From: an uncultured Oscillospiraceae bacterium
Lineage (GTDB): Bacteria > Bacillota > Clostridia > Oscillospirales > Oscillospiraceae
Direction: 5' to 3'
DNA: 64,000 nucleotides
NCBI GenBank assembly: GCA_947599875.1
Contig: CANQFV010000007.1
Location: 11,661-75,660 of the forward strand
Positions 38,895 to 60,570 of this stretch are shown one piece after another (positions within the stretch are counted from its first letter, which is position 1; every line of letters begins with the position of its first letter). Below the pieces are notes generated by a model, which worked only from the letters and a program-made list of their open reading frames with translations, was not told the DNA's origin and made no database searches. The translations under genes and the position numbers were made by a program.

Positions 38895-38974
38895 CTTGCC
38901 TGAAACCCCCTTTGCATGATACAGTGGGGTCATCAGAAAATAATCTGTGTCAAAACACAAAGGAGGACTTTACC

Positions 38975-39895: not shown

Positions 39896-39908
39896 TATAA
39901 TGTCCATT
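39885..39908. repeat. left inverted repeat / lox-like recombination site
   Basis: GACATTATTGATATAATGTCCATT. Arms GACATTA/TAATGTC around the spacer TTGATA. Confidence 0.85.
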
Positions 39909-39954
39909 AGGTCGCGATGGGGAAGCGCAAGCCTAACGAAATTCTTCGGTACTT

Positions 39955-39982
39955 ATTATAGCCGAAAACCTTAAAATGTCAA
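39955..39982 (-). promoter_or_regulatory. near-consensus sigma-A promoter inside the invertible segment (currently pointing left)
   Basis: Minus strand TTGACA (39982-39977), 16 nt, TATAAT (39960-39955). Confidence 0.6.
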
Positions 39983-40156
39983 GTGCCGTTAGGCAAATTC
40001 CCCGAAAAAAATGAAAAAGACCACGCCGCGACGCACTCTGGAGCTTTCCGGAAAACGGAAAGGGGCCAGGGTGAGCGTCAGCGTACCCTCAGGTGTTCAC
40101 CTCGCTAAAGTACGAGTGGAAGAAGTACCTAAGACAACCCAAGAGAACGACAGAAA

Positions 40157-40180
40157 AATGGACATTATATCAATAATGTC
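40157..40180. repeat. right inverted repeat / lox-like recombination site
   Basis: AATGGACATTATATCAATAATGTC is the exact reverse complement of 39885-39908. The spacer is TATCAA. Embedded in a 34-nt palindrome (40154-40187). Confidence 0.85.
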
Positions 40181-40289
40181 CATTTTTCGCGTGGGGAGGG
40201 GCAGGTCAAAAGGCGATTCTTCCATCTTTTTATGCACCAAGACGAGGCCGGAGGAGGAGCCTCCGGGAAAGAACATCAGGAGGGCAGAC

Positions 40290-41831
40290 ATGAAACAAAA
40301 TTCTTCAACAGAAAAAAGCAAAAACCGTGGCTTCACGTTAGTGGAGCTGATCGTCGTGATCGCGATCCTGGCGATTCTCTCCGCCGTGGGCGCGGTGGCC
40401 TACACGGGGTACATTGAGTACACCAAAAAGGGTCTGGACAAGCAGACCGTGGGGGAGATCATCCACGCAATAGAGCTGGCCAATTACGACGACCCCAGTT
40501 TGTTTGAAACTGGAGCCACCGTGTACATAACCAAGGACGGCGTAAAGAGCGACAGAGCAGAAGTTGACGCAGCCCTTGCGCGTGCCTTGGGCGACCTATC
40601 CACAGTCAAGCTCGCCTATGAAGGCTGGCCGCTGGAGGACTTTTCCGAAAGCATTAAAAACGGATTTCAAGGTCTTATGGACGATACCAATTCAAAGGCA
40701 AATGCGTATTGGGATGCAGTCAACACTAACGGCAAAGCGGCGACCTTTGCGGCGGATGTGGACGACCTCTGGGCGCATTTCACGTCGTTGAAAGATTCTC
40801 CCTTCTGGGATGAGGACAATTTTGGGAAAGCCGTTCAAATGAGCAACGATAAGCAGGAAGCAATCATTTCGGCATGGACAGAAGGCAAGTCATTTCTTGA
40901 TGAATCTATAGACCCGGGAAAAAAGGCTTATCTTGCGCTCTCTATGGCAAGAAACTATTCCTTCGCTGCTTACGCGGAGAAAAACGCTGTCTTGACCGAT
41001 GAAATGAAAGAAGAGCTTGACAAATTTAAGCTCAGCAGCGGCTCTTTCGGTACTGAAATGTTGGAAAAGGGGAAAGAAAAAACCGATATTTTGCAGAGTT
41101 CGGGATGGAAAGATGTTATTGCCGCGTACTATGCTGACGAAGCTCAATTAAAATCTGACGCACTGGGCTATCTGGCAATCATGGAGGCCGCGGATGTCAT
41201 CGCGGAGGGCAAGCCATTGGAGATGACGTCTGACGACTTTGTAAACGCTATGGAGCCGCACCTGGGCACAGTTTCCAACACGCTCACAAAGGGAAAAGCC
41301 GCTCTTAAACAGGCAATTAACATTACTGGAAAACACGCGCAGATTTCAGTTGCCAAGAATGCCGACGGAACCGTCACCTGCAAGCCCCGTCCTTCTGATC
41401 TTGACCCGAGGAAGGATGGCAGCAACGGAAGTACCGGTGGTGAATCGAGTAATGTTCCCACGCAAGAGGCAAAGAATGTTACTGTTAATTGGGATAGCGG
41501 AACTATCACCACTGAATCCGGCACAAATGTGATCGCTGTTAAATCGGGTGGAACAGCCACTATTTCGTTCCCCAAAGATAGCATTGGCAATTCTCCAATT
41601 ACTGAGTTTACCTGCAACGGTAATACATACAAATATGAAGGTACCCTCATAAATGGAAAGACTTTTGACATCGACAACGGAACGGTTAAAGTACAAATGA
41701 ATGCGAGTACCACAAGGCTTACATTTACCGGGACAGGGGAAGCTGGATCATCGTCAACTATTTCGCTCTCGGTAAAATGTGATAATGGCACCAGCAAAAC
41801 ATTTAACTTTACATTCTGGATTATTGAATAA
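40290..41831 (+). CDS. large prepilin-type N-terminal cleavage/methylation domain protein (orphan pilin-like, 513 aa)
   Basis: MKQNSSTEKSKNRG/FTLVELIVVIAILAIL (G-1, F+1, E+5). CAGGAGGG RBS. The ORF stays open upstream to 40011, but that extension crosses the repeat. Confidence 0.8.
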   Translation: MKQNSSTEKSKNRGFTLVELIVVIAILAILSAVGAVAYTGYIEYTKKGLDKQTVGEIIHAIELANYDDPSLFETGATVYITKDGVKSDRAEVDAALARALGDLSTVKLAYEGWPLEDFSESIKNGFQGLMDDTNSKANAYWDAVNTNGKAATFAADVDDLWAHFTSLKDSPFWDEDNFGKAVQMSNDKQEAIISAWTEGKSFLDESIDPGKKAYLALSMARNYSFAAYAEKNAVLTDEMKEELDKFKLSSGSFGTEMLEKGKEKTDILQSSGWKDVIAAYYADEAQLKSDALGYLAIMEAADVIAEGKPLEMTSDDFVNAMEPHLGTVSNTLTKGKAALKQAINITGKHAQISVAKNADGTVTCKPRPSDLDPRKDGSNGSTGGESSNVPTQEAKNVTVNWDSGTITTESGTNVIAVKSGGTATISFPKDSIGNSPITEFTCNGNTYKYEGTLINGKTFDIDNGTVKVQMNASTTRLTFTGTGEAGSSSTISLSVKCDNGTSKTFNFTFWIIE

Positions 41832-41875
41832 AGGTTACACCGTGATACACCGGGACGGTTCTTTCATAATCCCCC

Positions 41876-41905
41876 GAGGGCCAGGTACACCTGTACCTGG
41901 CCCTC
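41876..41905. terminator. stem-loop between convergent pilin-like and amidotransferase genes
   Basis: GAGGGCCAGGTACA-CC-TGTACCTGGCCCTC (14-bp stem). Confidence 0.5.
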
Positions 41906-41919
41906 GCTTTATCCCCACT

Positions 41920-42621
41920 CTATTTTGCCGCGTCAACGAAGACGTTGAAGATCCGCCTGCTGTCCGGGTCGGTCTTATAGGAAAACTCCGGGTGCCACTG
42001 GACGGCCCAGAGAAATCTCCTCCCCGGCATATACAGCGCCTCCACAAGGCCGTCGGGGGACGCGGCCATACACGCAAGGCCCGGCGCCAAAACCCTCACC
42101 GCCTGGTGGTGGCAGCTGTTCACGGCAAGGCGGCGGGTCTTCAGGCAGTCATACAGCGGCGAATCCGCTCTGATCTCCACGTCGTGGACGGGGACGTCAT
42201 AGGGGGCGCTTTGGCGGTGCGTGACGCCGGAGGGGTGCTGCGTTGGCAGATCCTGATACAGGCTGCCCCCAAGGGAGACGTTGATAAACTGGATCCCCCG
42301 GCAGATGCCCAGAACGGCCTTGTCCAGCTCCAGGGCCCTTTGCAGGACGATCCCCTCCAGCGCGTCCCGTTTTTCACAGCAGGAGACAAGCCCGGGCAGG
42401 GGCTGCTCCCGGTAGAGCCGGGGCGACACGTCGTGCCCGCCCGTGAAGAGGATGCCGCCGCAAAGCTCCACAAGCCGCGCCGCCTCTTCGGCGTCCTCGG
42501 TGAAGGGGAAGATGACCGGCGTGGCCCCGGCCTCGATAAGGCCGTCCATATACCCAGGCAGCATCCAAATGCTGTCCTTTTCCTCATCCCACAAGGGCAT
42601 GACACCAATGATCGGTTTCAT
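41920..42621 (-). CDS. gamma-glutamyl-gamma-aminobutyrate hydrolase family / class I glutamine amidotransferase (peptidase C26)
   Basis: IIGVMPLWD..., GICRGIQFINV (nucleophile Cys), HHQAV. Confidence 0.88.
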   Translation of the reverse strand: MKPIIGVMPLWDEEKDSIWMLPGYMDGLIEAGATPVIFPFTEDAEEAARLVELCGGILFTGGHDVSPRLYREQPLPGLVSCCEKRDALEGIVLQRALELDKAVLGICRGIQFINVSLGGSLYQDLPTQHPSGVTHRQSAPYDVPVHDVEIRADSPLYDCLKTRRLAVNSCHHQAVRVLAPGLACMAASPDGLVEALYMPGRRFLWAVQWHPEFSYKTDPDSRRIFNVFVDAAK

Positions 42622-45844: not shown

Positions 45845-46945
45845 TCAGGCCTTGAAAGGGGCAAAATACGCCGCGATCTGACGCATCCGATCCTCCTGCT
45901 TCACATGGAAGGGACAGCGGCTTTCGCAGTGGCCGCAGTGGAGGCAGTCGGAGGCGTGGACAGGGAGCTTCTGGTAATGTCCTTTCGCCAGCTCGTCGCC
46001 GGCGCGGGCCAGGTCGTAGTATTTGTTGATGAGGCCCACGTTCAGGCCGGCGGGGCAGGGCTGACAGTGGTTGCAGTAGACGCACACGCCCTCGGCGTCC
46101 CGGGGTGTGAAGCGGCTGATGTCCGAATAGTCCAGCTCCTCGGGCGCGGCGTCTATGTAGTGGAGTACGGTCTCAAGGTCAGCCATGTCCCGGACACCGG
46201 GGAGAACCGTCAGCACGGCGGGGCGGTCCAGGGCGTACTGGAAGCACTGAACATGGGTGAGAGCGTGACCGAAAAGGGAGCGTTTTTCATCCAGGAGCTG
46301 GCCTCCGGCGAAGGGCTTCATCACGGAGATGCCCACGCCCATCCTCTCGCAGTCCCGGTAAAGGGCGGCGCGCTGGGCGACCTCGCCGATGGCGTATTCG
46401 CCCTTTTGATAGTCGTAGGCCGGGTTGATGCTGAACATGAATAGGTCGATGAGGCCGGTGTCCAGGACTCGCCTGGCGATAGTGGGGTCGTGGGAGGAAA
46501 AGCCCAGGTGCCGGATGACGCCGTCCGCCTTGAGGCCCCTCATGTAGTCCCAGAGGCCGCCGTTCAGCACCTCGTCCAAATCCTCCATATCATCCACGCA
46601 GTGGATGAAGCCGAAGTCCGTATAATCCATCTTGAGGGTGCGGAAATTCCAGGCAATCTGCTCCTTGATCTCGTCAAGGTCGCGGGTCCAGCCATACTCG
46701 CCGGTTTTGTAGATCGCGCCGAAGTGCATCTGGGTGAGGATCTTATCCCGCCTCCCGGCGAAAGCCTCCGCGTAGGCGAAAAAGGGCGCCTGGACGGAGG
46801 GGGCCAGGTCAAAATAGTTGATTCCGCTCTCAATGGCGGCGTTCAGCACGGCGGCCATCTCGTCCTTCGTGCCGGAGAGGCTCCCGGCGCCGAGGCCGAT
46901 GACGCTTATCTTCTCGCCCCCGTGGGGCAGTGTGCGATATTCCAT
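45845..46945 (-). CDS. aldo/keto reductase with C-terminal 4Fe-4S ferredoxin-type cluster motifs (copy A)
   Basis: AKR N-terminus (YRTLPHGGEKISVIGLG) and C-terminal CNHCQPCP...CLHCGHCESRCP. Over 90% identical by eye to 57493..58593. Confidence 0.88.
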   Translation of the reverse strand: MEYRTLPHGGEKISVIGLGAGSLSGTKDEMAAVLNAAIESGINYFDLAPSVQAPFFAYAEAFAGRRDKILTQMHFGAIYKTGEYGWTRDLDEIKEQIAWNFRTLKMDYTDFGFIHCVDDMEDLDEVLNGGLWDYMRGLKADGVIRHLGFSSHDPTIARRVLDTGLIDLFMFSINPAYDYQKGEYAIGEVAQRAALYRDCERMGVGISVMKPFAGGQLLDEKRSLFGHALTHVQCFQYALDRPAVLTVLPGVRDMADLETVLHYIDAAPEELDYSDISRFTPRDAEGVCVYCNHCQPCPAGLNVGLINKYYDLARAGDELAKGHYQKLPVHASDCLHCGHCESRCPFHVKQEDRMRQIAAYFAPFKA

Positions 46946-46955
46946 ATGTACCTCC

Positions 46956-47429
46956 TCACTCCAGGGACAGGGTGATGGTCACGTCGCCGTTTGAGAGAAG
47001 CCCGGCCATCTCCTCATCCGATTTGTCCATGATGTGCCCGAGCCGCGTGTACGCCCAGGAGTTGGAGCCGTAGAATATCACGATCTGGTCGCCGGAGTAC
47101 AGCACGATGTCGCCGGACTGCGTCACGGTCTGCACATCGTTTCGCGGGAGAGCTGACCCCAGATATCCCACCTGCTCGAACCCGCCGTACATGGACATTT
47201 GAACCGTGATGGGTCCGTCCTGAACGAGCTTTCGGAGGGTCGCGACGGATTCGTTGTCCTCCCAGCTAACCGAAACGTCCATATTGCCGATCCGCATTTT
47301 TAATGTATCGTCCATTTGAGTATCCTCCGGTTTCGTTGAATCCTTGCCTCCCGCCGTGTCCCCGCGCCCGCACGCCGCGAGGGCAAAAATCAAGGCGGAG
47401 ACCAGCAGAAAAATGGTGATCTTTTTCAT
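46956..47429 (-). CDS. cyclophilin-like-fold lipoprotein (copy A)
   Basis: Lipobox ALAAC. VSVSWEDNESV...MYGGFEQVG...GDIVLYSGDQIVIFYGSNSW. Paralog of 58971..59444. Confidence 0.72.
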   Translation of the reverse strand: MKKITIFLLVSALIFALAACGRGDTAGGKDSTKPEDTQMDDTLKMRIGNMDVSVSWEDNESVATLRKLVQDGPITVQMSMYGGFEQVGYLGSALPRNDVQTVTQSGDIVLYSGDQIVIFYGSNSWAYTRLGHIMDKSDEEMAGLLSNGDVTITLSLE

Positions 47430-47941
47430 ATCATGCCTTCCAGAAGGTTTATTGAGCAACCTAAATTATACCCGCCCCGCCCCCGGTTGTAAAGGGCGAA
47501 GTGATCAGGCGTATTGATTTGTGGCGTGGAGCCGATGTAGTTATCCGTTGGAAAGCCGAAATCCGGCCCGCACCCGGCCCTATGGAGCGATGCCAGCTCG
47601 CGGCCGAAGGTTTCCCAGTAATCCCGCCGGCGCGGGGCGGGGGAGAGGTATTCCATGATCAAAAACGACTCTGTTTTATCTGCTCCGACTGCCAGCGGCT
47701 CCGGCACGCCGATGACGCCAGGCTCCCTCAGCGCCTCCAGCCCCCGCGCCTCGGCGGTGAACATGTTCCGAAGCCCCGGCCGGTTGCACTTGAGGAACAC
47801 GGCCTCCCCGTTAGAAAGCTCCAGCCGGTACGTCCGGTTGATGTCCCCGCCGGACACCCGCCGCCGGTCAACGACCCTGGCCGCCGGGCCGAAAAGGGCG
47901 AGGATCGCCCCATCTACCGAATTTGCGGACAGCACGTTCAT
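47426..47941 (-). pseudogene. fructosamine/ketosamine kinase family gene, N-terminal fragment only (copy A)
   Basis: Matches aa 1 to about 143 of the intact paralog 59611..60483 up to DNYIGSTPQ, then unrelated sequence. About 0.5 kb deleted relative to copy B. Confidence 0.75.
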
Positions 47942-47965
47942 CCCCCCTTTTTGCGTTATGTCAAC

Positions 47966-50284
47966 TTAATCCGCAAGCCTCAGAAGCCCCTTTTTGACGG
48001 CCCCCTGAAGCTCGAAACGCTTCACCCCGGGGACCGCGTCAAAGACGATGCTCGCCACGATGCTCTTGCCGTAGGTGGCAAGCTCGGTGATCCGCCCCGT
48101 GCCGAAGAGGGTGTGCGTGACGTGTGTGCCGGTTTTGAAGCTCTGAACCGGCGCGGATCTGCCCGCCGCGTCAGGCGGCGTCTTGACGCTCAAAGGCCTT
48201 GGAGGGGCGTACCTCACAGCCGGATCGCGGCGTTGGGCCATTTGCCAGAGGGGCAGAAGCTCCGTCCCTCCGCCGGAATATTTGATCAGGAAGTTATCGC
48301 CGCACTGGGCAAGGATCTCCCCCTGCCCGTTTTCCTTGCCGGAATACGTCTTCCCCAGCAGATTTTCGTAGAGGAAGGAGAAAACGTCGCCCGAGGAAAC
48401 CACCTCCCTTGGCAGGGACGCCAGGGCCTCCCTTGTGAAGCAGGAGGGGGAATCGGCGCAGGAAAAGAGGTACAGCCACGACTTTGCCCGGGTCATCGCC
48501 ACATAGAACAGCCGCCGCTCCTCCTGATAGGAGCGCGTTTCCTCCTCCGTCTTGCACGCGTGGGCCGGCTTTAGGGGGAGGACGCCGTCAAGGACATCCA
48601 GAAGAAACACCCGCTCAAACTCCAGCCCCTTGGCCGAATGGATCGTGGATAGGGTCAGGAGCGTCTCCGGCGTGTTCTTATGGCGGGTGAGCAGCGCCTG
48701 AAGCTCGTCCAGGCGGCGCAGCAGGCCGCCCACGGTCTCCTCCTCCCGCGCCAGCATCTGAAGTATAAAGAATTTGCCGCTGTCGAGGCCGTTTTGCTCC
48801 ATATACACGCTGTATTGCAGCTCGTTTCGGATGGCATCCAATGCGCGGCCTGCGCTGAGCGCCGGGAGCTTGGGGAGGAGGGAGCGGAGCTTCAGAATCC
48901 CCTCCCGGGCGGAGACGGACATGTCGTGAAAGCCGGAAAACGACTCTAAAATGTCCCTCCCGGTTCGGCGCGACCCGTTACAGGCAAACTGCGCCGCGGC
49001 CTTGGACAGGGGAAAACCGAATTTATAATAGATCTGCATGAAGGCCTCCGCATCCGTCGGATCCTCCGCGAAACGGACGATGGCGCGGATGTCATTTAAG
49101 ATGCGGTGACTGAAGAAGGACGCGTCAAAATTCCGGCAGTTGTAGGGGATGCCGTTTCGCTCAAAGAGGTCGATCAGCGGCAGGGCGCTTTCGTTGTTGC
49201 GGTAGAGGATCGCCGTCTCGATCCGCACCTCCCGGGATTCGTGGAAGAGGTAGTCAAACTGCGCCTCCCGGGTGAGGGAGTAGATTTTCCTGACGGCGTC
49301 CCCGCTTTCCTTGGTGGAGCGAATCGTCTTGTCCCGGCGAAATTTGTTCCCGGCGACAAAGGCGTTGGCCAGGGAGACGATCTCCGGCGTGGAGCGAAAG
49401 TTGTCCTCGATCAGCAGAACCTTTGCCCCCGGGTGATCCTCCTCAAAGTGCATCAGCGCGTCCGGGTAGGCCGCCCGGAAGCCGTAGATGGACTGATCCT
49501 CGTCGCCCACCATAAACAGATTTCCGCTTTTCGACGCCAGGAGCTTGATGATCTGGTGCTGGATTTTGGAGGTGTCCTGCGCCTCATCCACGCAGATATA
49601 GGGAAAGGCGCTTTGAAAATGCTCCAGCAGGGACGGCACCCTCTGTAGGAAGAGCAGGGCGTAGGTCATCTGGTCGTCATAGTCCATGAGCCGCCGGCTT
49701 TTCAATACGGCGCAGTAACGGGCGTAGATTTCCGGAAAATGCTCCACGCCGGCGTCCACATGGCCGATGTCGTCGCCTGTGATCATCATGTTCTTGACGT
49801 ATGTAATGGCGGTTCGGATGTCCTTGACGGTACTGGGCGGGGCGTATGTTTCCCCCGCCACCTCGCAGTAGACGGCCGCCGCGATTTTGTTAAGCTCGCC
49901 CTCGCTGTCTAAAAGGCGAAACGCACGTTCCTTGCCGTGATTTCTCTCATAGTACTGGATGATCTTTGCCGAGAGGCCGTTTATGGTGCGAAATTCCATC
50001 CTGTCGGCAAGCTCCTGGCCGAAGAGCGCGGCAAAGCGCTGCTTCATCTCCTGAGTGGCGGCCACCGTGTAGGTCATGGTCAGGATGCACTCGGGCTCGA
50101 TGCCCAGACAGCAGGTCATGTACCCCAGCCGTGCCACAAGCACCGTGGTCTTGCCGCTTCCCGGGACTGCCAGAAGCAGCACCGGCCCCTCCACCGCCCT
50201 CACCGCCTCGAGCTGCGAGGGCGTTAAATTTTTGAGAAATTGTTCCCGGAATTCATCGGGTGTCATTCTGCCCATGTGCGCCAC
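47966..50284 (-). CDS. UvrD/PcrA/Rep-family SF1 DNA helicase
   Basis: Walker A AVPGSGKTTV, DEAQDTS, FMVGDEDQSIYGFR, TIHSAKGLEF, VAMTRAK. The C-terminal FGTGRI tudor-like tail is typical of PcrA/UvrD. Confidence 0.9.
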   Translation of the reverse strand: MAHMGRMTPDEFREQFLKNLTPSQLEAVRAVEGPVLLLAVPGSGKTTVLVARLGYMTCCLGIEPECILTMTYTVAATQEMKQRFAALFGQELADRMEFRTINGLSAKIIQYYERNHGKERAFRLLDSEGELNKIAAAVYCEVAGETYAPPSTVKDIRTAITYVKNMMITGDDIGHVDAGVEHFPEIYARYCAVLKSRRLMDYDDQMTYALLFLQRVPSLLEHFQSAFPYICVDEAQDTSKIQHQIIKLLASKSGNLFMVGDEDQSIYGFRAAYPDALMHFEEDHPGAKVLLIEDNFRSTPEIVSLANAFVAGNKFRRDKTIRSTKESGDAVRKIYSLTREAQFDYLFHESREVRIETAILYRNNESALPLIDLFERNGIPYNCRNFDASFFSHRILNDIRAIVRFAEDPTDAEAFMQIYYKFGFPLSKAAAQFACNGSRRTGRDILESFSGFHDMSVSAREGILKLRSLLPKLPALSAGRALDAIRNELQYSVYMEQNGLDSGKFFILQMLAREEETVGGLLRRLDELQALLTRHKNTPETLLTLSTIHSAKGLEFERVFLLDVLDGVLPLKPAHACKTEEETRSYQEERRLFYVAMTRAKSWLYLFSCADSPSCFTREALASLPREVVSSGDVFSFLYENLLGKTYSGKENGQGEILAQCGDNFLIKYSGGGTELLPLWQMAQRRDPAVRYAPPRPLSVKTPPDAAGRSAPVQSFKTGTHVTHTLFGTGRITELATYGKSIVASIVFDAVPGVKRFELQGAVKKGLLRLAD

Positions 50285-51559: not shown

Positions 51560-51569
51560 TGATATAGAA

Positions 51570-51609
51570 AACCGGCCGGCACGTCGATGGGCGTGCCGGC
51601 CGGTTTTTT
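51570..51609. terminator. bidirectional rho-independent terminator
   Basis: AACCGGCCGGCACG...CGTGCCGGCCGGTT followed by TTTT, with an A-run upstream. Confidence 0.75.
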
Positions 51610-52103
51610 CAGGTTTCTTTCCCTCTGACTGCCTCACCGTAGAACGCGGCGAGAATGAGGATGTAGCAGACGGTTTTGGGCAGCATCAGCATACCGAGGA
51701 TGGGGACGATACCCGCCGCCACAGCCACGGGGATGTAGAAAAGAAAGGAGAGGGTGATGAGGAGCCAGATGAAGCGGAAGCGCCGGTTCTTGCCCCGGGT
51801 CTTGAAGTAGAGCGCCACGATGATCGTCCCCAGAACCACAAAGGGCACGTTGCGGATCACCCCCCAGAGTACGCCGCTGTCATTCTCCAGCCACCTGTTC
51901 TGCGGGAAAAGGCAGAGGGCGATGCGGACAGCCGCCAGGGCCCAGACGGCGGCAGTGAGGGGCTTATTTTCCGCCTCCTCATACGTCCCGAGCCAGATAT
52001 AGTACATGAGGACATAGAAAACGGTCATGGTGACGGAGGTGACCAGCTTCCCGGCGCCCAGCGCCGCCGAGCCCAACTTCGGGAAAAAGGTGAAACGGGT
52101 CAA
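51609..52103 (-). CDS. small polytopic membrane protein (4-5 TM), unknown function
   Basis: 164-aa hydrophobic ORF, 40 nt downstream of and co-directional with the helicase-nuclease gene. Confidence 0.55.
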   Translation of the reverse strand: MTRFTFFPKLGSAALGAGKLVTSVTMTVFYVLMYYIWLGTYEEAENKPLTAAVWALAAVRIALCLFPQNRWLENDSGVLWGVIRNVPFVVLGTIIVALYFKTRGKNRRFRFIWLLITLSFLFYIPVAVAAGIVPILGMLMLPKTVCYILILAAFYGEAVRGKET

Positions 52104-52143
52104 GCGAAAAAGAGAGTTGTAAGGCCGGACAAATTCAAAACAT

Positions 52144-55100
52144 CTATTTCATCCTCCCGGCGGTGAAATATCGGATCAGGATGTCCTTGATGTAGTGGTA
52201 ACGTCGGGCATAGGTGTTTTCCACGCGGATAAGCTCAAAGCCGTGGTCGCGGCAGATATCGTTTTTGCGTCTGTCGCGCTCCCGGACTACCAAATCCTCA
52301 AAATGTTCTCTTCCGTCCAACTCGATAGCCAGAACGGGCAGCTCGTTTTTTCCGACGGTGCGCTCATAGACCACAAAGTCAAAGCGGCCGGTGTAAAAGA
52401 GGCTGGAATAGGACGTATTGTTGCGGAACACCTGAGAAACAGGGACTTCCTTCCGTATGGAGTATTTGTTTCCGAAGGGGAGGATATTGTCAATAGCGTG
52501 GTTCAGATTCTCCATAAAAGCCGCTTCGGTCTCGGAGCTGTAGGGCTTGATGCCTAAAGCCCTGGAAATGGCGGTGCGCTGAGTGACTGTCGATGCGCCG
52601 TTGGACTTTATGTACTCTACCAGCTCAAAGAGGTCGTCCTGCTCGTCTGCGTTGTGGAGCCGTCTCAGATTTTTATCGCTGCCCAGGACGATGAGCTGAT
52701 TCTTTGCCCGCGAAGTGGCTACGTTGATCAGTTCTCGATTGTTCTTGAGCCAGTTATATGTCTTTTGCCGCGTCTCATCTGACAGTCCCAGGGAGAAGAG
52801 AATGACATCCTTTTCATCGCCCTGAAAGGCGTGAACGGTGCCGCAGGTGACATTGAATATCCCGGCGTCCCGCAGACGTTCATCGATAAGGGCGCGCTGG
52901 TTGGCAAACGGCGTGATGATGCCGAGATTTTCACCGGGATGTTTTTGAACATACTCTACGATTTGTTCCGCCTCACCGGGGGCGGTGTTTTTTATGGCGG
53001 AGTCACTGTCGGAAACATCCACAAACAGGAGCGGCCGGTCACTCCTGCTGTTGCTCAGGATGGTCAGCTTCCCGTTATAATACTTTCGGTTGTTGAAATC
53101 GATGATCTTTTTATGACAGCGGTAGTGATACCGAAGCAGAACCTCATCGCTGACAGAATCGCAGGCGAGGTACGTCTTGTATACGGAGTTTTGAATATAG
53201 TCGTACTCCTCCGGAACGCCGTACTTTTTCCTAAGCACTTGGTTGTCCGCCGGGTCCAGGAGTATCACCGGATCCAACTGCTGAGGGTCGCCCACCAGCA
53301 TCAGGCTGTAGCCGCGGAGAATGGGCACCAGGGACACGGCGATATTGCACTGGCTCGCCTCGTCCATGATGACCATATCAAAATACTGCCTTGGTTCTCC
53401 AATCTTATGTGCGGAAATGCAGGTAGTGGAGACAATAGGAAAGATACGCAGAAAAGCCTCTACATTCTCGTCCTTGTTGAGGTATTTGTTGAAGCTTGAG
53501 ACCCGGTCTGGATTCTCGCTGTCCATGAGGATAATATCTAAAAGTTCCCTATTTTTGGGTTCGCTGAGGCGCTTGATAATCTTAGCGGAGGTGTAATAAA
53601 GATATTTCCTAAATTCCTCCCCGTCGTCGTCGATAAGCGCCAGTGCGTCGGAGTTTTTGATGTCGCCAATTTCAGATAAACGGGCGTCGATCTCCGTGAG
53701 CTGGCGGCCTTGAAGCTCGGCCTGGAAGCTCAGCTGGTGATTCTCAGAAAGAAGATGCTCCACTGTTTCCCGCCGTTCACGGAGGTCAAGAACCTCCTCA
53801 TAATTTGAGAGAAGCTCTGTGAGCTGCTTAGCCCTCTGAATCTTGCTCTTCCGGTCCTTGTCAAGGGTGGAATCAAAAATCTTTACATTCCGTGTTCGCT
53901 CATAGAGATCGCGGATGTCGTCAAGAGCATGGGCAACCTTGTCATTGTTTCCAAGCCGTATCATGGGGAACGGGATGCTCTGCCCACGGTAGGTGAGCCC
54001 TCTCAGCTTTTTGAATACGCTGTCTATGGGGTGGTTATTGTATGAGGCAAATAGAACCGTCCGGCCGTTGAAAAAGGCGGTCATGATGGTGTTGAGAATC
54101 GTGTTCGTCTTCCCGGTTCCCGGCGGCCCCTGAATATAAGCCAAGGGGAAACGCATGGCGTTGTTGATGGCCAGAAGCTGATCCAAGTTGACCCGGCGGT
54201 CAAGGAGGGCAATCGGGTAACTTTTTCGTCGGACCGGCCGTTTGAGAAGATCCCCGAAAAAAGCCTGGATGGGCGCCGTGACCCTGTCCTCGTTGTACAT
54301 CGTGGTAATGGCCGCGTACTCGTGTTCCAAATCAAGAGGAATATCCGCTGCGATGGCAATGAGATAGGGCATGTCATCCACACCGCTTATTTTTGCGTTG
54401 GTCACGGTGATGACATCTTTGATCGTCTCCAGGTTCTCCTCAAAATCGTCCAGCAGGTCCATGTCGTCGGCGTCCAGGAACCGGTGGATGCTCACCCTTT
54501 CACCGGAGATGGAGAATTCCCGGCAAAGCGTGATTCTGTCGTCCGGGCGCAGAGAGCGGGCTTCGATGTCAAGGAACATCTTTCGATACGCCAGTACATA
54601 GAGGCCCTGCTTTGTGTGGATGCTCATCACATTCAAGCCCAGCTGCTTGATTTTCAGCTTGTTGTCTTCCTCCTGGGCGGCCTTGTATTGAAAATACCGC
54701 ACGATTTCTTGAAACTGTTTTTCACTGAGGGCGTAGGAGCCGCCGGTGAATCCTTCCCCGTCAAAATGGTGGATCAGAGCGTACTCGCAGCTATACGGCG
54801 TGGCGTCCAGACGGTTGCAATCGGAGAGATAATTCAATATCTTAAGATTGGGAATATTGTCAAAAAGTCCGGTATATTTCTCCGGATGAAGGGCAATATC
54901 CCCCACAAGTCGCTGATTTATGGCGCAGTACGTCCCCTCCAGAACGGCGGAGCTGAGAATAGAATCGATGTAGATCACCAGCTCCGCCGTGGCCATTTCC
55001 CCCAGGTGGAGTCCATCAACTCGCAGCATTTTGTGCTTAAGATCAATATCTTGGATGCCGATCCAATATTTAGTGAGCTTGCCGTCCTTGTTCCTGTATT

Positions 55101-55185
55101 CAATACTGAGCCATTTGCCCTCGTGTATGGCCCGAAATATGTCTTTGCATACACTCGTCATAACGGTCTCCTTATCATGTCTCAC
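52144..55185 (-). CDS. WYL-like N-terminal domain / SF1 (Upf1-DNA2-like, AAA_11/AAA_12) helicase / C-terminal DUF2726 endonuclease-like fusion protein
   Basis: KWLSIEYRNKDGKLTKYWIGIQDID (WYL-like). GPPGTGKTN, MDEASQC, VGDPQQLDPV, VHAFQGDEKD, VATSRAK. C-terminal FDFVVYER...LAIELDGREH...RD..K. Visibly AT-richer than its surroundings. Confidence 0.85.
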   Translation of the reverse strand: MRHDKETVMTSVCKDIFRAIHEGKWLSIEYRNKDGKLTKYWIGIQDIDLKHKMLRVDGLHLGEMATAELVIYIDSILSSAVLEGTYCAINQRLVGDIALHPEKYTGLFDNIPNLKILNYLSDCNRLDATPYSCEYALIHHFDGEGFTGGSYALSEKQFQEIVRYFQYKAAQEEDNKLKIKQLGLNVMSIHTKQGLYVLAYRKMFLDIEARSLRPDDRITLCREFSISGERVSIHRFLDADDMDLLDDFEENLETIKDVITVTNAKISGVDDMPYLIAIAADIPLDLEHEYAAITTMYNEDRVTAPIQAFFGDLLKRPVRRKSYPIALLDRRVNLDQLLAINNAMRFPLAYIQGPPGTGKTNTILNTIMTAFFNGRTVLFASYNNHPIDSVFKKLRGLTYRGQSIPFPMIRLGNNDKVAHALDDIRDLYERTRNVKIFDSTLDKDRKSKIQRAKQLTELLSNYEEVLDLRERRETVEHLLSENHQLSFQAELQGRQLTEIDARLSEIGDIKNSDALALIDDDGEEFRKYLYYTSAKIIKRLSEPKNRELLDIILMDSENPDRVSSFNKYLNKDENVEAFLRIFPIVSTTCISAHKIGEPRQYFDMVIMDEASQCNIAVSLVPILRGYSLMLVGDPQQLDPVILLDPADNQVLRKKYGVPEEYDYIQNSVYKTYLACDSVSDEVLLRYHYRCHKKIIDFNNRKYYNGKLTILSNSRSDRPLLFVDVSDSDSAIKNTAPGEAEQIVEYVQKHPGENLGIITPFANQRALIDERLRDAGIFNVTCGTVHAFQGDEKDVILFSLGLSDETRQKTYNWLKNNRELINVATSRAKNQLIVLGSDKNLRRLHNADEQDDLFELVEYIKSNGASTVTQRTAISRALGIKPYSSETEAAFMENLNHAIDNILPFGNKYSIRKEVPVSQVFRNNTSYSSLFYTGRFDFVVYERTVGKNELPVLAIELDGREHFEDLVVRERDRRKNDICRDHGFELIRVENTYARRYHYIKDILIRYFTAGRMK

Positions 55186-55222
55186 TGAGCAAAAAGCTGC
55201 GATCTGCTTTAATTCTAAATTA

Positions 55223-55251
55223 ATCTTACCTCAATCTATAAACTTTTTCAA
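55223..55251 (-). promoter_or_regulatory. candidate promoter of the helicase-nuclease gene
   Basis: Minus strand TTGAAA (55251-55246), 17 nt, TAAGAT (55228-55223), in an AT-rich spacer. Confidence 0.3.
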
Positions 55252-55370
55252 GTGACTTTAAAGCGAAGAGCATATTTCCAAAAGCAACTTTTTTGAGAAT
55301 ATATCGAGTGAACTCTGCGGTCAATAACAAGATCAAGAGTAATAATATAACTTTTTGCTTATAAAAAACG

Positions 55371-55452
55371 AAAACTCCCTGATTTCACACGAAATCGGGA
55401 AATTTTTTGGGTGGAGACAACTGAGTTAAGCCCGCGACCTACTGCATGTGAA
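55371..55452 (-). repeat. terminator-hairpin plus degenerate tRNA-3'-half remnant, copy 1
   Basis: CCCTGATTTCACACGAAATCGGG, then TGGGTGGAGAC...GACCTACTGCATGTGAA. Aligns with copy 2 (56796-56878), but the T-arm is no longer foldable. Confidence 0.6.
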
Positions 55453-56716
55453 AAATGACTGGGCGAATTACAGGATCCTTGTCCACGCGTTGAAGTCCAC
55501 GCCCCTGTCTATTGGCGCGGTGTCCCTCTCGGAAAAGGCCAAGGCGCTGGAGATGGCGGCGAGGGATGGCGATGTCCGGTACATTGAGGCGAATCACGCG
55601 GGCTGTATGGCGGATTATAGGGCGCTGCTCGCCGGTATCGACGCCGGCCTGCACGGAAAGGCCGTCCCGGCGGAGGCCGCGGCTGAGGAACCCGCCGTCA
55701 GAGAACACATCCTCGTGGTTGACGACGACAGGATGAATTTGAAAATTGCGGAGAGGCTCCTGAAAAGCTCCTATGATGTGAGCTGTGTGCCCTCCGGGGA
55801 GGAAGCGCTTGCTTTCCTCCGGTCAAAACACCCGGATATGATCCTGCTGGATCTCCATATGCCCGGTATGGACGGCTTTGACGTCCTGAAACAGATCCGT
55901 CAGGACCTGGGCCTCGGCGATATTCCCGTCATCTTCCTGACCGTCGACGACGATCAGAACACAGAGGTAAAGGGCTTCGAGGAGGGCGCGGTAGACTTTA
56001 TCAAAAAGCCGTTTGTGGCGGAGATCATGTTGAGACGCGTTCAGAGAATGTTGGAACTCTCCCGGCTGAGGCACAATCTTGAGGCCGAGGTCCGCAAGCA
56101 GACAAAAAAGGCTGAGGAACGCCGCGAGAGGATGGAGCGCCTCTCTGAGGAGGCGGTCTTGTGCCTGTCCAAGACCATCGACGCCAAGGACAAGTACACC
56201 AACGGCCACTCGGAGCGCGTGGCCAAGTACTCCCGGGAGATCGCCCGCCGCGCCGGAATGAGCGAGATCGAGCAGAAGGACATCTTTTTCATGGGCCTTC
56301 TCCACGACGTGGGCAAGATCGGCGTGCCGGACACGGTGATCAATAAGCCCGGAAAGCTCACCGATGAAGAATTTGCCCTGATCAAAAAACACCCGGTCAC
56401 CGGGTTTGAGATCCTGAAGGACATCACAGAAATGCCCGGAATAGGGCAGGGGGCGCGCTGGCACCATGAGCGCTACGGCGGCGGAGGTTATCCTGACGGC
56501 ATCAGCGGCGAGGACGTCCCCGTCTATGCCCGCATCATCGGCGTGGCCGACGCCTACGACGCCATGACCTCCAAGCGCAGCTACCGCGATGTACTGCCCC
56601 AGGATGTGGTCAGAAGCGAGATCGAAAAGGGCATAGGCACCCAGTTCGACCCCACCTTTGCAAAGATCATGCTGGATATGATCAAAGCGGATGTCCATTA
56701 CGAGATGCACGAGTGA
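55448..56716 (+). CDS. Hpt(fragment)-receiver-HD-GYP response regulator (c-di-GMP phosphodiesterase type)
   Basis: VHALKSTPLSIGA (Hpt His at residue 13, so the domain is N-terminally short). REC (VVDDDRMN...LLDLHMPGMDG). HD-GYP (HSERVAKY, LHDVGK, HHERYGGGGYPDG). Confidence 0.85.
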   Translation: MKNDWANYRILVHALKSTPLSIGAVSLSEKAKALEMAARDGDVRYIEANHAGCMADYRALLAGIDAGLHGKAVPAEAAAEEPAVREHILVVDDDRMNLKIAERLLKSSYDVSCVPSGEEALAFLRSKHPDMILLDLHMPGMDGFDVLKQIRQDLGLGDIPVIFLTVDDDQNTEVKGFEEGAVDFIKKPFVAEIMLRRVQRMLELSRLRHNLEAEVRKQTKKAEERRERMERLSEEAVLCLSKTIDAKDKYTNGHSERVAKYSREIARRAGMSEIEQKDIFFMGLLHDVGKIGVPDTVINKPGKLTDEEFALIKKHPVTGFEILKDITEMPGIGQGARWHHERYGGGGYPDGISGEDVPVYARIIGVADAYDAMTSKRSYRDVLPQDVVRSEIEKGIGTQFDPTFAKIMLDMIKADVHYEMHE

Positions 56717-57492: not shown

Positions 57493-58593
57493 TCAGAGAG
57501 TGTAAGAAGCGAAATACTCCGCAATCTCCCTCATCCTGTCCTCCTGCTTCACATGGAACGGACAGCGACTCTCGCAATGTCCGCAGTGGAGGCAGTCGGA
57601 GGCGTGGAGGGGGAGGTTGAGGTAGTGGTTCTTCGCCAGCTCGTCGCCGACGCGGGCGAGGTCGTAATATTTGTTGATGAGGCCAACATTCAGGCCGGCG
57701 GGGCAGGGCTGGCAGTGGTTGCAGTAGACGCACACGCCCTCGGCGTCCTGTGGCGTGAAGTGGCTGATGTCCGAATAGTCCAGCTCCTCCGGCGCAGCGT
57801 CCATGTAGTGGAGCACGGTTTTGAGGTCCGCCATGTCCCGGACGCCGGGAAGCACGGTCAGTACGGCGGGGCGATCCAGAGCGTACTGGAAACACTGGAC
57901 GTGGGTGAGGGCGTGGCCGAAAAGGGAGCGTTTTTCGTCAAGGAGCTGGCCTCCGGCGAAGGGCTTCATCACCGAGATGCCCACGCCCATCCTCTCGCAA
58001 TCCCGGTAAAGGGCGGCGCGCTGGGCGACCTCGCCGATGGCGTACTCGCCCTTTTGGTAGTCGTAGGCGGGATTGATGCTGAACATGAATAAATCGATGA
58101 GCCCGGTGTCCAGAACCCGCCTCGCGATGGTGGGGTCGTGGGAGGAGAAGCCCAGGTGACGGATGACGCCGTCCGCCTTGAGACCCTTCATGTAGTCCCA
58201 GAGCCCGCCGTTCAGGACCTCGTCAAGGTCCTCCACGTCGTCCACGCAGTGGATGAAGCCGAAGTCCGTATAATCCATCTTCAGCGTGCGGAAATTCCAA
58301 GCGATCTGCTCCTTGATTTCGTCAAGGTCGCGAGTCCAGCCGTACTCGCCGGTTTTGTAGATCGCGCCGAAGTGCATCTGGGTGAGGATTTTATCCCGCC
58401 TCCCGGAGAAAGCCTCCGCGTAGGCATACCAGGGCGCTTCGACGGACGGTGCAAGGTCAAAGTAGTTGATTCCGTTCCCGATTGCGGCGTTCAGCACGGC
58501 GACCATCTCGTCCTTCGTGCCCGAAAGACTCCCGGCACCAAGGCCGATGACGCTTATTTTCTCGCCCCCGTGGGGCAGTGTGCGATATTCCAT
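57493..58593 (-). CDS. aldo/keto reductase with C-terminal 4Fe-4S motifs (copy B)
   Basis: Paralog of 45845..46945. Start chosen at MEYRTLPHGG as in copy A. Confidence 0.88.
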   Translation of the reverse strand: MEYRTLPHGGEKISVIGLGAGSLSGTKDEMVAVLNAAIGNGINYFDLAPSVEAPWYAYAEAFSGRRDKILTQMHFGAIYKTGEYGWTRDLDEIKEQIAWNFRTLKMDYTDFGFIHCVDDVEDLDEVLNGGLWDYMKGLKADGVIRHLGFSSHDPTIARRVLDTGLIDLFMFSINPAYDYQKGEYAIGEVAQRAALYRDCERMGVGISVMKPFAGGQLLDEKRSLFGHALTHVQCFQYALDRPAVLTVLPGVRDMADLKTVLHYMDAAPEELDYSDISHFTPQDAEGVCVYCNHCQPCPAGLNVGLINKYYDLARVGDELAKNHYLNLPLHASDCLHCGHCESRCPFHVKQEDRMREIAEYFASYTL

Positions 58594-58629
58594 ATGTACC
58601 TCCGAAAAATCCATGTCAGGTGGGCAAGA

Positions 58630-58956
58630 TCAGTCTTCTTTCCACACATCCTTGGCCAGCCGGAACACCGCCCACGCCTTGGGCCAGCCGACGTAGAAGC
58701 CCACATGGGTCACGATGGCGGCGATCTCCTCCCGTGTCACGCCGTGGCCCTTGGCGTTTTCCAGGTGGTAAATGAGGGACGAGTCGGTGATGCCGGAGCT
58801 CATCAGCGCCACAACGGTGATGATACAGCGGGTCTTCAGGTCGATGTCCTGGTTGTTCCAGTTTTCGCCGAAGAGCACGTCGTCGTTGAAGTGGGCAAAG
58901 TCCGGCGCGAAATTGCCGAGCTGGTCTCTGCCCGCGGTTTGAGTGATTTTTTCCAT
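58630..58956 (-). CDS. carboxymuconolactone decarboxylase (CMD/AhpD-like) family protein
   Basis: LKTRCIITVVALMSSG...HLENAKGHGVTREEIAAIVTHVGFYVGWP. Present only in copy B. Confidence 0.82.
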   Translation of the reverse strand: MEKITQTAGRDQLGNFAPDFAHFNDDVLFGENWNNQDIDLKTRCIITVVALMSSGITDSSLIYHLENAKGHGVTREEIAAIVTHVGFYVGWPKAWAVFRLAKDVWKED

Positions 58957-58970
58957 GTGAAACCTCCTCG

Positions 58971-59444
58971 TTATTCCAGAGACAGGGTGATGACTACGTC
59001 GCCGTTTGAGAGCAGCCGCGCCATCTCCTCATCCGATTTGTCCATGATATGTCCGAGCCGTGTGTACGCCCAGGAGTTGGAGCCGTAGAACACCACGATC
59101 TGGTCGCCGGAGTAGAGCACGATGTCGCCGCTCCGCGTCACGGTCTGCGTGTCGTTTCGAGGCAAATCGGTGCCGAGGTACCCCACCTGCTCGAACCCGC
59201 CGTACATGGACATCCGCACCGTGACCGGCCCATCTTTGGCGAGCTCCCGCAGCGTCTCAACGGACTCGTTTTCCTCCCATTCCACCGAAACGTCCGTGTC
59301 GTTGATCCTCATTTTCAATGTCCCGTCCACTTGTATTTCCTCCTCGTCTGTTGTGGATGTCTCCTCTTGTGCCTCCCCACCGGAGCATGATGCGATAGAG
59401 AGAAGCAAGAAGGGGAGAAACAGTAAAATCGTGAGTTTTTTCAT
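58971..59444 (-). CDS. cyclophilin-like-fold lipoprotein (copy B)
   Basis: Lipobox SIASC. Paralog of 46956..47429. Confidence 0.72.
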   Translation of the reverse strand: MKKLTILLFLPFLLLSIASCSGGEAQEETSTTDEEEIQVDGTLKMRINDTDVSVEWEENESVETLRELAKDGPVTVRMSMYGGFEQVGYLGTDLPRNDTQTVTRSGDIVLYSGDQIVVFYGSNSWAYTRLGHIMDKSDEEMARLLSNGDVVITLSLE

Positions 59445-59610
59445 ACGGTTCCTTTCAAATGCTTTGCTGAACAGTATAAATTATACCCGCATCGACCCCG
59501 AATGTAAAGGGCGGAATGCGGGTTTTAATTGATGGTGTAATGCAATTTGGCAATGCTGAACATGGCGAGAATGCGTCAAAATTTGTGACGGTATAAGCAA
59601 AATAGGCAAA

Positions 59611-60483
59611 TTAGGCGTAATGCTCTGCAATCGCCTTGACTTCGGCAAGGTAAGGGAGACCGAAAAGGTTGAGGTGGTTGAGGAGGTGGTAGAGGTTGTA
59701 GAGGTCGCGGCGGGTTGAGTAGGACGGGTCAATGGGGTTGACTTCGTTGTATGCTCGGTAGAAGCGCTCCGGGAAGCCGCCGAAGAGCTCTGTCATGGCC
59801 AGCTCCGCCTCAAAGTGCCCCACATAGGCCGCCGGGTCTATGATCCACGCCTTGCCGTCGGGGCCGCAGACGGCGTTGCCGGACCAAAGATCGCCGTGGA
59901 TGAGAGAGGGAAAGGCTGGCTCTGGGAGAAGAGCGTCAAGGCGCTCGGTAACGCGGGCGAGGTCGTGCCGTGTGCGCTCGTCCAGAAGCCCCCAGGCGAG
60001 CTTCATCTGAGGGATGAGGCGTCGCTCACGGAAGAACGCCACCCAACTTTCCATTGGCGCGTTTTGCTGGGGCGTGGAGCCGATATAGTTGTCGGTTGGA
60101 AAGCCGAAGTTCGACCCGCACTCCGCCCGGTGGAGCGCCGCCAGCTCGTGCCCGAAAGTCTCCCAGTAGTCGGCACGACGTGAGGCGGGGGAGAGATATT
60201 CCATGATCAAAAACGCATCATTCCCGTCCGCTCCGACTGCCAAAGGCTCCGGCACGCCAATGGTCCCGGTTGCCCTCAACGCCTCCAAACCGCGAGCCTC
60301 GGCAGTGAACATGCCAAGAAGCCCGACCCGGTTGCATTTGAGAAAGACGCGCGCGCCGTTGGATAGCTCCAGCCTGTACGCGCGGTTAATATCCCCACCC
60401 GACACCCTCTGCCGGTCAACGACTTTGACTGAGGGACCGAAAAGGGCGGAGATCGCACTATCTATTGAGTTCGCAGAAAGCAT
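59611..60483 (-). CDS. fructosamine/ketosamine kinase family protein (intact copy B)
   Basis: GGDINRAYRL, FLKCN, LIHGDLWSGN. About 290 aa. Confidence 0.85.
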   Translation of the reverse strand: MLSANSIDSAISALFGPSVKVVDRQRVSGGDINRAYRLELSNGARVFLKCNRVGLLGMFTAEARGLEALRATGTIGVPEPLAVGADGNDAFLIMEYLSPASRRADYWETFGHELAALHRAECGSNFGFPTDNYIGSTPQQNAPMESWVAFFRERRLIPQMKLAWGLLDERTRHDLARVTERLDALLPEPAFPSLIHGDLWSGNAVCGPDGKAWIIDPAAYVGHFEAELAMTELFGGFPERFYRAYNEVNPIDPSYSTRRDLYNLYHLLNHLNLFGLPYLAEVKAIAEHYA

Positions 60484-60570
60484 TGTCATCACCCAAGCCA
60501 ATTTAGTAAATCCATTTTACTCCAAGCTGCGCTTGTTTTCAATATACCGCGTCGTGACGGACATTGTTTG

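Follow-up and report, generated by a model that had tools for sequence, protein, structure and literature searches.

A helicase-nuclease gene of foreign composition

The DNA analyzed here, 64,000 nt of contig CANQFV010000007.1 from an uncultured Oscillospiraceae bacterium (GenBank assembly GCA_947599875.1), is referred to as the window, and the subject of this study is a minus-strand gene within it that encodes a helicase core joined to a predicted nuclease. An earlier note on this DNA, made from the sequence alone, had proposed the gene as a candidate single-gene defence module and had read its product as 1013 amino acids (aa). The open reading frame (ORF) is indeed intact and extends over 52144..55185 (minus strand) if read from a GTG at 55185; the start, however, had to be moved. 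The ribosome-binding site (RBS) AAGGAG at 55173-55168 lies 6 nt upstream of an ATG at 55161 and homologs are 999-1005 aa long, and the real start is therefore almost certainly this ATG, yielding a predicted product of 1005 aa (coding sequence 52144..55161, minus strand). All residue numbers given below refer to the 1005-aa protein. The DNA upstream of the start reads ...gataAGGAGaccgttATG.

With a GC content of 0.513 and a GC content at third codon positions (GC3) of 0.66, compared with 0.59-0.62 and 0.74-0.83 in neighbouring genes, the helicase-nuclease gene forms the lowest-GC 3-kb stretch within the window. The intergenic region upstream of it (55162..55366, minus strand, 205 nt) is richer still in A and T (GC 0.317); besides the RBS it contains a promoter-like TTGAAA-17-TAAGAT sequence at 55251-55223, a mere consensus match of which four occur versus 3.2 expected. 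Judged by base composition, the gene is foreign to its surroundings. Both the low GC content and a separate AT-rich upstream region had been described in the earlier note and are borne out, unlike the tRNA-remnant scars that it placed beside the gene: ARAGORN identified no tRNA in the whole window, and an Rfam search at E<=1 returned nothing tRNA-like between 49500 and 58000.

A complete helicase core is followed by a predicted nuclease

The central part of the protein matches the Pfam families AAA_11 (3.7e-30, 106 bits) and AAA_12 (4.8e-25, 88.7 bits), both well above the gathering threshold (GA) of 27. Helicase domain 1A, which carries an insertion, is encoded at 53260..54192 (minus strand) and includes Walker A (GPPGTGKT), Walker B (DEASQ) and motif III (VGDPQQL), while domain 2A at 52675..53181 (minus strand) includes the motifs FQGDE and ATSRAK. 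In an alignment with 30 full-length homologs of 60-89% identity, Walker A residues G345-T352, the DExxQ residues D600, E601, S603 and Q604, VGDPQQL (623-629), FQGDE (779-783) and S817/R818 are all invariant. A family profile retrieved Sen1, DNA2, Upf1/NAM7 and IGHMBP2 as the nearest solved relatives (E 1e-21 to 6e-29), with alignments covering the core only. As far as sequence allows, this is a complete Upf1-like superfamily 1 (SF1) helicase core with Walker A and B and motifs III, V and VI intact, in agreement with the Upf1/DNA2-type assignment made before.

The C-terminal domain (52195..52536, minus strand) matches DUF2726 (PF10881) with 33.4 bits in the context of the whole protein and 38.1 bits as an isolated domain (GA 24.7), and shows secondary similarity to MTES_1575 (2.6e-5) and DUF559 (8e-3). 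Its motifs, GRFDFVVYE, AIELDGREH and R..K, include D928 (RFDF), D949 and H953 (IELDGxEH), R962 and K966, all of them invariant among the same 30 homologs, and the nearly invariant E947. DUF2726 has been grouped with Vsr and DUF559 inside the PD-(D/E)XK superfamily (PMC3424549) and described as a DNase with restriction endonuclease (REase) fold belonging to conflict systems (PMC3710099). Within the same clade, Vsr is a repair enzyme, a homing endonuclease belongs to the DUF559 clade, and DUF2726 genes of Fusobacteria are surrounded by mobile elements (PMC3424549). The C-terminus is accordingly a predicted Vsr/DUF559-clade PD-(D/E)XK nuclease with conserved acidic and histidine residues, and the identification as DUF2726 that had been made by eye holds at the profile level, including the motifs quoted for it.

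The N-terminal module comprises a WYL-like barrel and a second conserved domain

The first 330 residues precede the helicase core and were modelled with AlphaFold2 (mean predicted local distance difference test score, pLDDT, 68; predicted template modelling score, pTM, 0.65). The model shows a helix (3-14) followed by a five-stranded barrel (18-73), with block pLDDT values of 81-90 over aa 11-80. Beyond the barrel it consists of helices (80-114), a disordered linker and a second beta-rich unit (171-224) with helices. A Foldseek search against the PDB placed WYL proteins at all of ranks 1-12 (among them BrxR, 7qfz/7t8k, and PafBC, 6sj9/9fnd), with CapW and DriD soon after, at E-values of 1.6e-3 to 7e-3, probability 1.0 and a root-mean-square deviation of ~3.2 Å over 75-81 columns; generic Sm-fold proteins rank close behind. 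Profile evidence is weaker. WYL (PF13280) is the sole Pfam match of aa 1-110, but it reaches 13.1 bits over 25 residues (E 0.098), below the GA of 21.8, and across the family the WYL profile matches 4 of 21 members at E<=1 (best E 0.021), a level that a noise family reaches as well. Domain 1 (aa ~15-75; 54937..55119, minus strand), a five-stranded beta-barrel of the Sm/SH3 type, is therefore best described as WYL-like in its predicted fold, with homology to WYL unproven. The N-terminal string quoted in the earlier note is present, and its WYL-like reading survives as a statement about fold, not as a profile assignment; of the three-part architecture it proposed, the helicase and DUF2726 are supported by profiles and the WYL-like part by structure prediction.

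Domain 2 (aa 136-335; 54157..54756, minus strand) is predicted as a beta-meander with helices that leads into the helicase (pLDDT 67), and many of its alignment positions are invariant. When it was modelled separately, Foldseek yielded no fold match in the PDB (best E 0.33) or BFVD (best E 0.08), and Pfam had no match to it, so that the ~250 aa left unassigned in the first reading stay without a counterpart in these three collections. Since this separate model gives no WYL matches, the WYL-like signal belongs to the first barrel. A tandem duplication inside the N-terminal half was considered and rejected (hhalign of aa 1-118 against 136-262, probability 0.9%), and no solved structure could be linked to the N-terminal module at the sequence level.

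The gene is a single-gene cassette acquired from elsewhere

Comparison with related loci delimits the acquired DNA. An 89% identical relative (P0002; the window locus is P0001) was found in an Oscillospiraceae metagenome-assembled genome (MAG) from rabbit gut, where it occupies another locus: an AAA_14/DUF4143 gene precedes it, a GATase gene follows, and integrase fragments lie close by. DNA homology between the two loci is limited to 55198-52113, the gene plus ~35 nt on each side. This block shares 84.6% nucleotide identity, compared with 77-78% for the other genes shared with the P0002 locus, GH31 and GATase, both of which sit elsewhere in the window. On the upstream flank, a response-regulator/HD-GYP gene (55367..56716, plus strand) is truncated at its 5' end: the first REC domain is missing and the remaining sequence starts within Hpt. 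The intact ortholog (P0272), a 626-aa REC-Hpt-REC-HD-GYP protein of 81% identity, is homologous from its aa 197 onwards, corresponding to nt 55367, the exact end of the AT-rich stretch. The truncated regulator gene marks the upstream edge of the acquired patch; its translation from an internal GTG at 55448 is possible. Around 51900-55600, a search for terminal inverted or direct repeats gave short matches at chance level only. Because the gene has the lowest GC content, adjoins a truncated flanking gene and shares only itself and ~35 nt per side with the 89% identical relative elsewhere, we conclude that it is a horizontally acquired, locus-independent single-gene cassette.

Three metagenome assemblies in the European Nucleotide Archive (ENA; ERZ27249106, ERZ27249596 and ERZ27249325; contigs L002-L004 and L006-L008) each hold both a 99% identical copy at a window-like locus and an 89% identical copy at the other locus. 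Two related organisms of one habitat therefore carry the gene at different sites.

The downstream membrane ORF is a remnant and lies outside the module

A 164-aa ORF for a polytopic membrane protein (51609..52103, minus strand) follows the helicase-nuclease gene in the same direction, and the two had been linked in the earlier note. The ORF exists mechanically, with a TTG start, but it is the start-less 3' remnant of a 216-aa gene. In three metagenome contigs of 98-99% identity the downstream gene is intact, at 216 aa with its own GGAGG-ATG, whereas the window lacks ~250 bp (positions 6085-6343 of contig L006 are absent, with the junction at 52067-52078). Part of this loss falls between 9-bp repeats (gcggcgctg); the deletion removed the RBS, the ATG and ~65 codons. 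The TTG of the 164-aa ORF is incidental. Pfam gave sub-threshold matches only.

One could still suppose a two-gene system of the helicase-nuclease and a co-directional membrane protein, given that the two genes lie close together in one orientation, both in the window and in the contigs of 98-99% identity. Such a partnership has next to no chance of being real: the membrane gene has lost its start and first codons here, its GC3 of 0.83 is host-like as opposed to 0.66 in the helicase-nuclease gene, and it is absent downstream of the 89% identical homolog and at all other inspected or clustered loci. As the ORF is truncated in the window and not conserved beside homologs, it is unrelated and not part of the module, and the proposed link falls.

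The protein belongs to a large family of gut Clostridia

A homolog search returned >3000 matches, the top 120 of which are all ~1000 aa long with identical Pfam architecture, and a scan of one genome per species located full-length relatives in at least 564 species genomes. The best 80 loci come mostly from Lachnospiraceae, Oscillospiraceae and other Clostridia, and include a few MAGs labelled Bacteroides, Thermoguttaceae and Lentisphaera at 58-61% identity. When 1.8 billion representatives were searched exhaustively with a hidden Markov model of the N-terminal 330 aa, 566 proteins were identified. The best 150 of these 566 are ~1000 aa long or else shorter and mostly partial, and among the matches listed the N-terminal module is therefore confined to this architecture. 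In the source databases such proteins go by 'AAA domain-containing protein' or 'hypothetical' and no other name. By sequence, this is a large, unnamed family of gut Clostridia, already sequenced and unstudied, whose domain order is not unique to the window. The earlier impression that the order resembles no described system stands insofar as no defence family fits past the helicase core, and has to be qualified insofar as the same order recurs throughout a large family.

Carriage by phages or plasmids appears rare. Neither INPHARED phages nor PLSDB plasmids contain a full-length relative (0 in each), and 2.9 million viral contigs of IMG/VR contain one (L099:8001-11006, 68% identity). This relative sits at the extreme end of a 16-kb contig and may for that reason represent the host flank of a prophage call.

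Gene neighbourhoods give mixed evidence on defence

Clustering of all neighbouring ORFs across 79 species loci with flanks revealed no conserved neighbour, the commonest neighbour family occurring at 10 of the 79 loci in scattered positions; the description of the gene as stand-alone is well founded. Among the 150 proteins immediately adjacent (±1), ResIII/Helicase_C (4), hydrolases, response regulators and chemoreceptors are the commonest. About 8-10 of the 150 are strong PADLOC matches (mREase_IV, Cas3, DpdF, PDC-S01, PDC-S06, PDC-S23, PsyrT and HKD-Snf2), as a raw count. Six contexts were inspected gene by gene, and one is a clear defence and toxin-antitoxin island (P0067): one flank has Lhr, MNT-HepT, a PLD-SNF2 helicase, a methyltransferase and an HNH protein, the opposite flank Phd-Uma2 and RHH-PIN. 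Three have a toxin-antitoxin pair or mobile-element genes, namely a Phd/ParE pair nearby (P0041), a DUF4143 gene and integrase (P0002) and an IS200 (Y1) transposase (P0059), and the remaining two, P0099 and the window itself, are housekeeping contexts. The neighbourhood evidence on defence is mixed and enrichment unproven.

The N-terminal module sets the protein apart from known helicase-nucleases

Comparison with PADLOC, a check suggested in the earlier note, and with NCBIfam gave matches to the helicase core but no described defence family; they include IGHMBP2, ProA, PLuB and Hhe in NCBIfam and MkoA, MkoC, PDC-S37 and Hhe in PADLOC, all far below cutoff. Hhe is reportedly a system of Gao et al. 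2020 composed of a DUF4011 helicase and a Vsr-like endonuclease (NCBIfam NF042953, PADLOC PDLC02194). Hhe and the family described here share one polypeptide in which an Upf1-like AAA_11/AAA_12 core precedes a C-terminal REase domain of the Vsr/DUF559/MTES_1575 clade, and Hhe is the closest known system in its logic. The Hhe models, however, span ~1800-1900 positions with an N-terminal DUF4011, whereas the 1005-aa protein has the WYL-like barrel and domain 2. It shows no Pfam match to DUF4011, aligns with NF042953 over residues 600-773 only (85.5 bits versus a cutoff of 2000) and with PADLOC Hhe over 575-811 only, and was not assigned to Hhe.

Mokosh helicases have the best PADLOC similarity (MkoA 2.4e-53, MkoC 1.3e-47), likewise in the helicase core. 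Mokosh proteins differ by a PLD nuclease and large extra domains; the alignments are confined to residues 337-863 (MkoA) and 435-862 (MkoC), Pfam detects no PLDc, and Mokosh was rejected as an assignment. Hna, cited in the earlier note, is an SF2-type helicase with a nuclease domain; it does not occur among the PADLOC matches, though the library was not verified to include a model of it. In Nhi (SERP2475) of Staphylococcus, an SF1 helicase and a PD-(D/E)XK nuclease are fused in one stand-alone protein, as appears to be the case here. The anti-phage activity of Nhi is proven: it serves as sensor and effector at once, breaks down the replication intermediates of phages and seems to be autoinhibited (10.1101/776245). 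Nhi has 606 aa, an N-terminal HsdR-like nuclease, a DUF2075 helicase and no WYL-like domain, whereas the nuclease here is C-terminal and of the DUF2726 type. The DUF2075 profile (PF09848) scores 19.9 bits (GA 24) over residues 350-397, about 50 residues only, so that Nhi membership was likewise discarded; by analogy, Nhi would be the best mechanistic counterpart.

On the N-terminal side, the WYL domains of BrxR, CapW, PafBC and DriD may be counterparts of the predicted barrel, on which they superpose at ~3.2 Å over 75-80 columns, but the family described here lacks a winged helix-turn-helix or WCX domain and carries its predicted barrel N-terminal to a motor. The SF1B helicase TePif1 provides a case of a WYL domain attached to a helicase, in which it serves as an accessory module binding single-stranded DNA (ssDNA) (10.1101/163188). 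Helicases with a C-terminal DUF2726 also occur in E. coli O157 (WP_001304205.1, 722 aa) and Parabacteroides (WP_154395897.1, 902 aa), at 27-29% identity over query residues 240/324-980; both are annotated 'AAA domain-containing protein' and lack the 330-aa N-terminal module. The E. coli gene (NZ_CP124741.1, L089:5471-8151) is preceded by an overlapping 171-aa ORF, which has no similarity to this module and was dismissed as a split-off part of it. The Parabacteroides gene lies on a plasmid (L092:5698-8406) beside genes for an N6 DNA methylase and a TIR-domain protein. Taken at the sequence level, the protein described here is a single-protein helicase-nuclease set apart by its 330-aa N-terminal module.

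Further features of the window

A perfect hairpin (51566-51609) with a 20-bp stem and A/T runs on each side separates the membrane-gene remnant from the convergently oriented Macro gene and looks like a bidirectional terminator. The region 47966-50284 (minus strand) encodes a 772-aa UvrD/PcrA-like helicase that is extended by ~160 aa at its C-terminus; it has strong but generic PADLOC matches to GajB and RTasHel, and no Gabija GajA-like partner was seen. A three-gene block of aldo-keto reductase, cyclophilin-like lipoprotein and fructosamine kinase occurs twice in direct orientation (45853-47946 and 57501-60494), the copies being 89.8, 76.6 and 77.3% identical for the three genes in turn, and brackets ~9.5 kb that hold the UvrD-like, Macro, membrane-remnant, helicase-nuclease and truncated regulator genes. 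The kinase of the first block copy (47426-47941) is C-terminally incomplete, and the second block copy has an extra 108-aa ORF at 58630-58956.

A second low-GC patch (38912-42621, GC ~0.51-0.52) contains genes for a tyrosine integrase (38912-39895) and for a protein of 606 aa (40011-41831) whose N-terminus bears a pilin-like methylation motif; a Peptidase_C26/GATase gene (41920-42621) adjoins the latter. The orthologous GATase gene and integrase fragments are direct neighbours of the 89% identical helicase homolog in the sister MAG (L001), an arrangement suggestive of a shared integration hotspot.

Discussion

The simplest anti-phage weapons include stand-alone helicase-nucleases, with Nhi and Hhe as examples; the way in which these discriminate self from foreign DNA is still an open question. 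We propose that the gene described here encodes a self-sufficient, mobile helicase-nuclease most likely directed against invading DNA (phages and plasmids), a reading to which we assign a probability of roughly 0.5. It draws support from the ssDNA binding of WYL domains, from the accessory and mobile character of the gene, from its partial defence company and from the precedent of Nhi. The WYL domains of CapW, PafBC and DriD bind ssDNA, a signal of damage or infection (PMC11662680, PMC11804915, PMC13004042). By analogy with these domains and with Nhi, the WYL-like barrel would bind single-stranded nucleic acid as a trigger or loading aid, the Upf1-like motor would translocate 5'->3' along ssDNA that intermediates of the invader's replication or recombination expose, and the tethered Vsr-type nuclease would nick or cut the tracked DNA. 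Domain 2 may keep the enzyme in an autoinhibited state that binding of a substrate or ligand relieves. The more specific version, an unnamed, widespread single-protein immune system of gut Clostridia in which a divergent WYL-type barrel would respond to ssDNA or to a nucleotide signal and thereby license motor and nuclease against replicating foreign DNA, is advanced as a tentative proposal that may well be wrong.

Several observations weigh against a role in defence. The fold matches of the barrel reach E-values of only ~1e-3 on a model of modest overall confidence, and its Pfam score for WYL falls short of the threshold; sequence searches link the nuclease to no solved structure; the defence models of PADLOC and NCBIfam align with the helicase core and extend no further; and the literature searched links no DUF2726-helicase fusion to a tested function. 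In addition, the 150 ±1 neighbours span 179 Pfam families, mostly ordinary metabolic, regulatory and transport genes, the 135 ±2 neighbours are equally diverse (162 families), and two of the six inspected contexts, including that of the window, are of the housekeeping kind.

A different function would be that of an accessory repair, recombination or replication-restart enzyme similar to DNA2 or Pif1, in which the barrel would be an extra ssDNA-binding module without an immune role. DNA2 is among the closest solved helicase cores, the accessory WYL domain of TePif1 offers a direct parallel (10.1101/163188), WYL regulators act in DNA-damage responses (PMC11804915, PMC13004042), Vsr of the same nuclease clade is a repair enzyme (PMC3424549), and housekeeping neighbours are found at many loci. 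Such a role nevertheless seems unlikely to us in view of the patchy, non-syntenic distribution and foreign composition of the gene, the defence and toxin-antitoxin company at some loci, and its better conservation than flanking genes between two related genomes in which it nonetheless sits at different loci. Action on RNA, known for Sen1, Upf1 and IGHMBP2 among the nearest solved cores, and the rank of Mokosh helicases as best PADLOC matches would also fit an RNA-directed, Upf1- or Mokosh-like helicase that surveys or degrades foreign transcripts instead of DNA. This is improbable, as the Mokosh matches are confined to the helicase core, a PLD domain is lacking, and the effector has the Vsr/DUF559/DUF2726 REase fold, whose characterised members are DNases in the surveys cited here (PMC3424549, PMC3710099).

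A selfish element has to be considered as well, either a bare gene that spreads by means of its own nuclease in a homing-like manner or one that serves an unrecognised mobile element. The homology unit is cassette-like, genes on both flanks in the window are truncated or deleted, IS200 Y1 transposase, integrase and DUF4143 genes are neighbours at other loci, and the nuclease clade has the homing and mobile-element associations noted above (PMC3424549). A 1005-aa helicase, on the other hand, is unnecessary for homing, terminal inverted or direct repeats are missing, the 79 loci show no consistently linked integrase, and collections of phages, plasmids and viral contigs yielded hardly any relatives (0, 0 and 1 full-length matches, respectively), so that we give this explanation only a slim chance.

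The family offers a compact and highly conserved test case of 1005 aa, with carriers in at least 564 species, including many gut Lachnospiraceae and Oscillospiraceae, and with a candidate sensor domain of a kind that is known to bind ssDNA. If these proteins do act in defence, they would enlarge the poorly charted immune repertoire of the phylum by a common system and would couple WYL-like sensing directly to an effector; if the proposed sensing by the barrel is true, this would be the first WYL sensor built into a helicase-nuclease effector instead of a transcription factor. If they do not, the family would constitute an unrecognised accessory DNA-processing enzyme.

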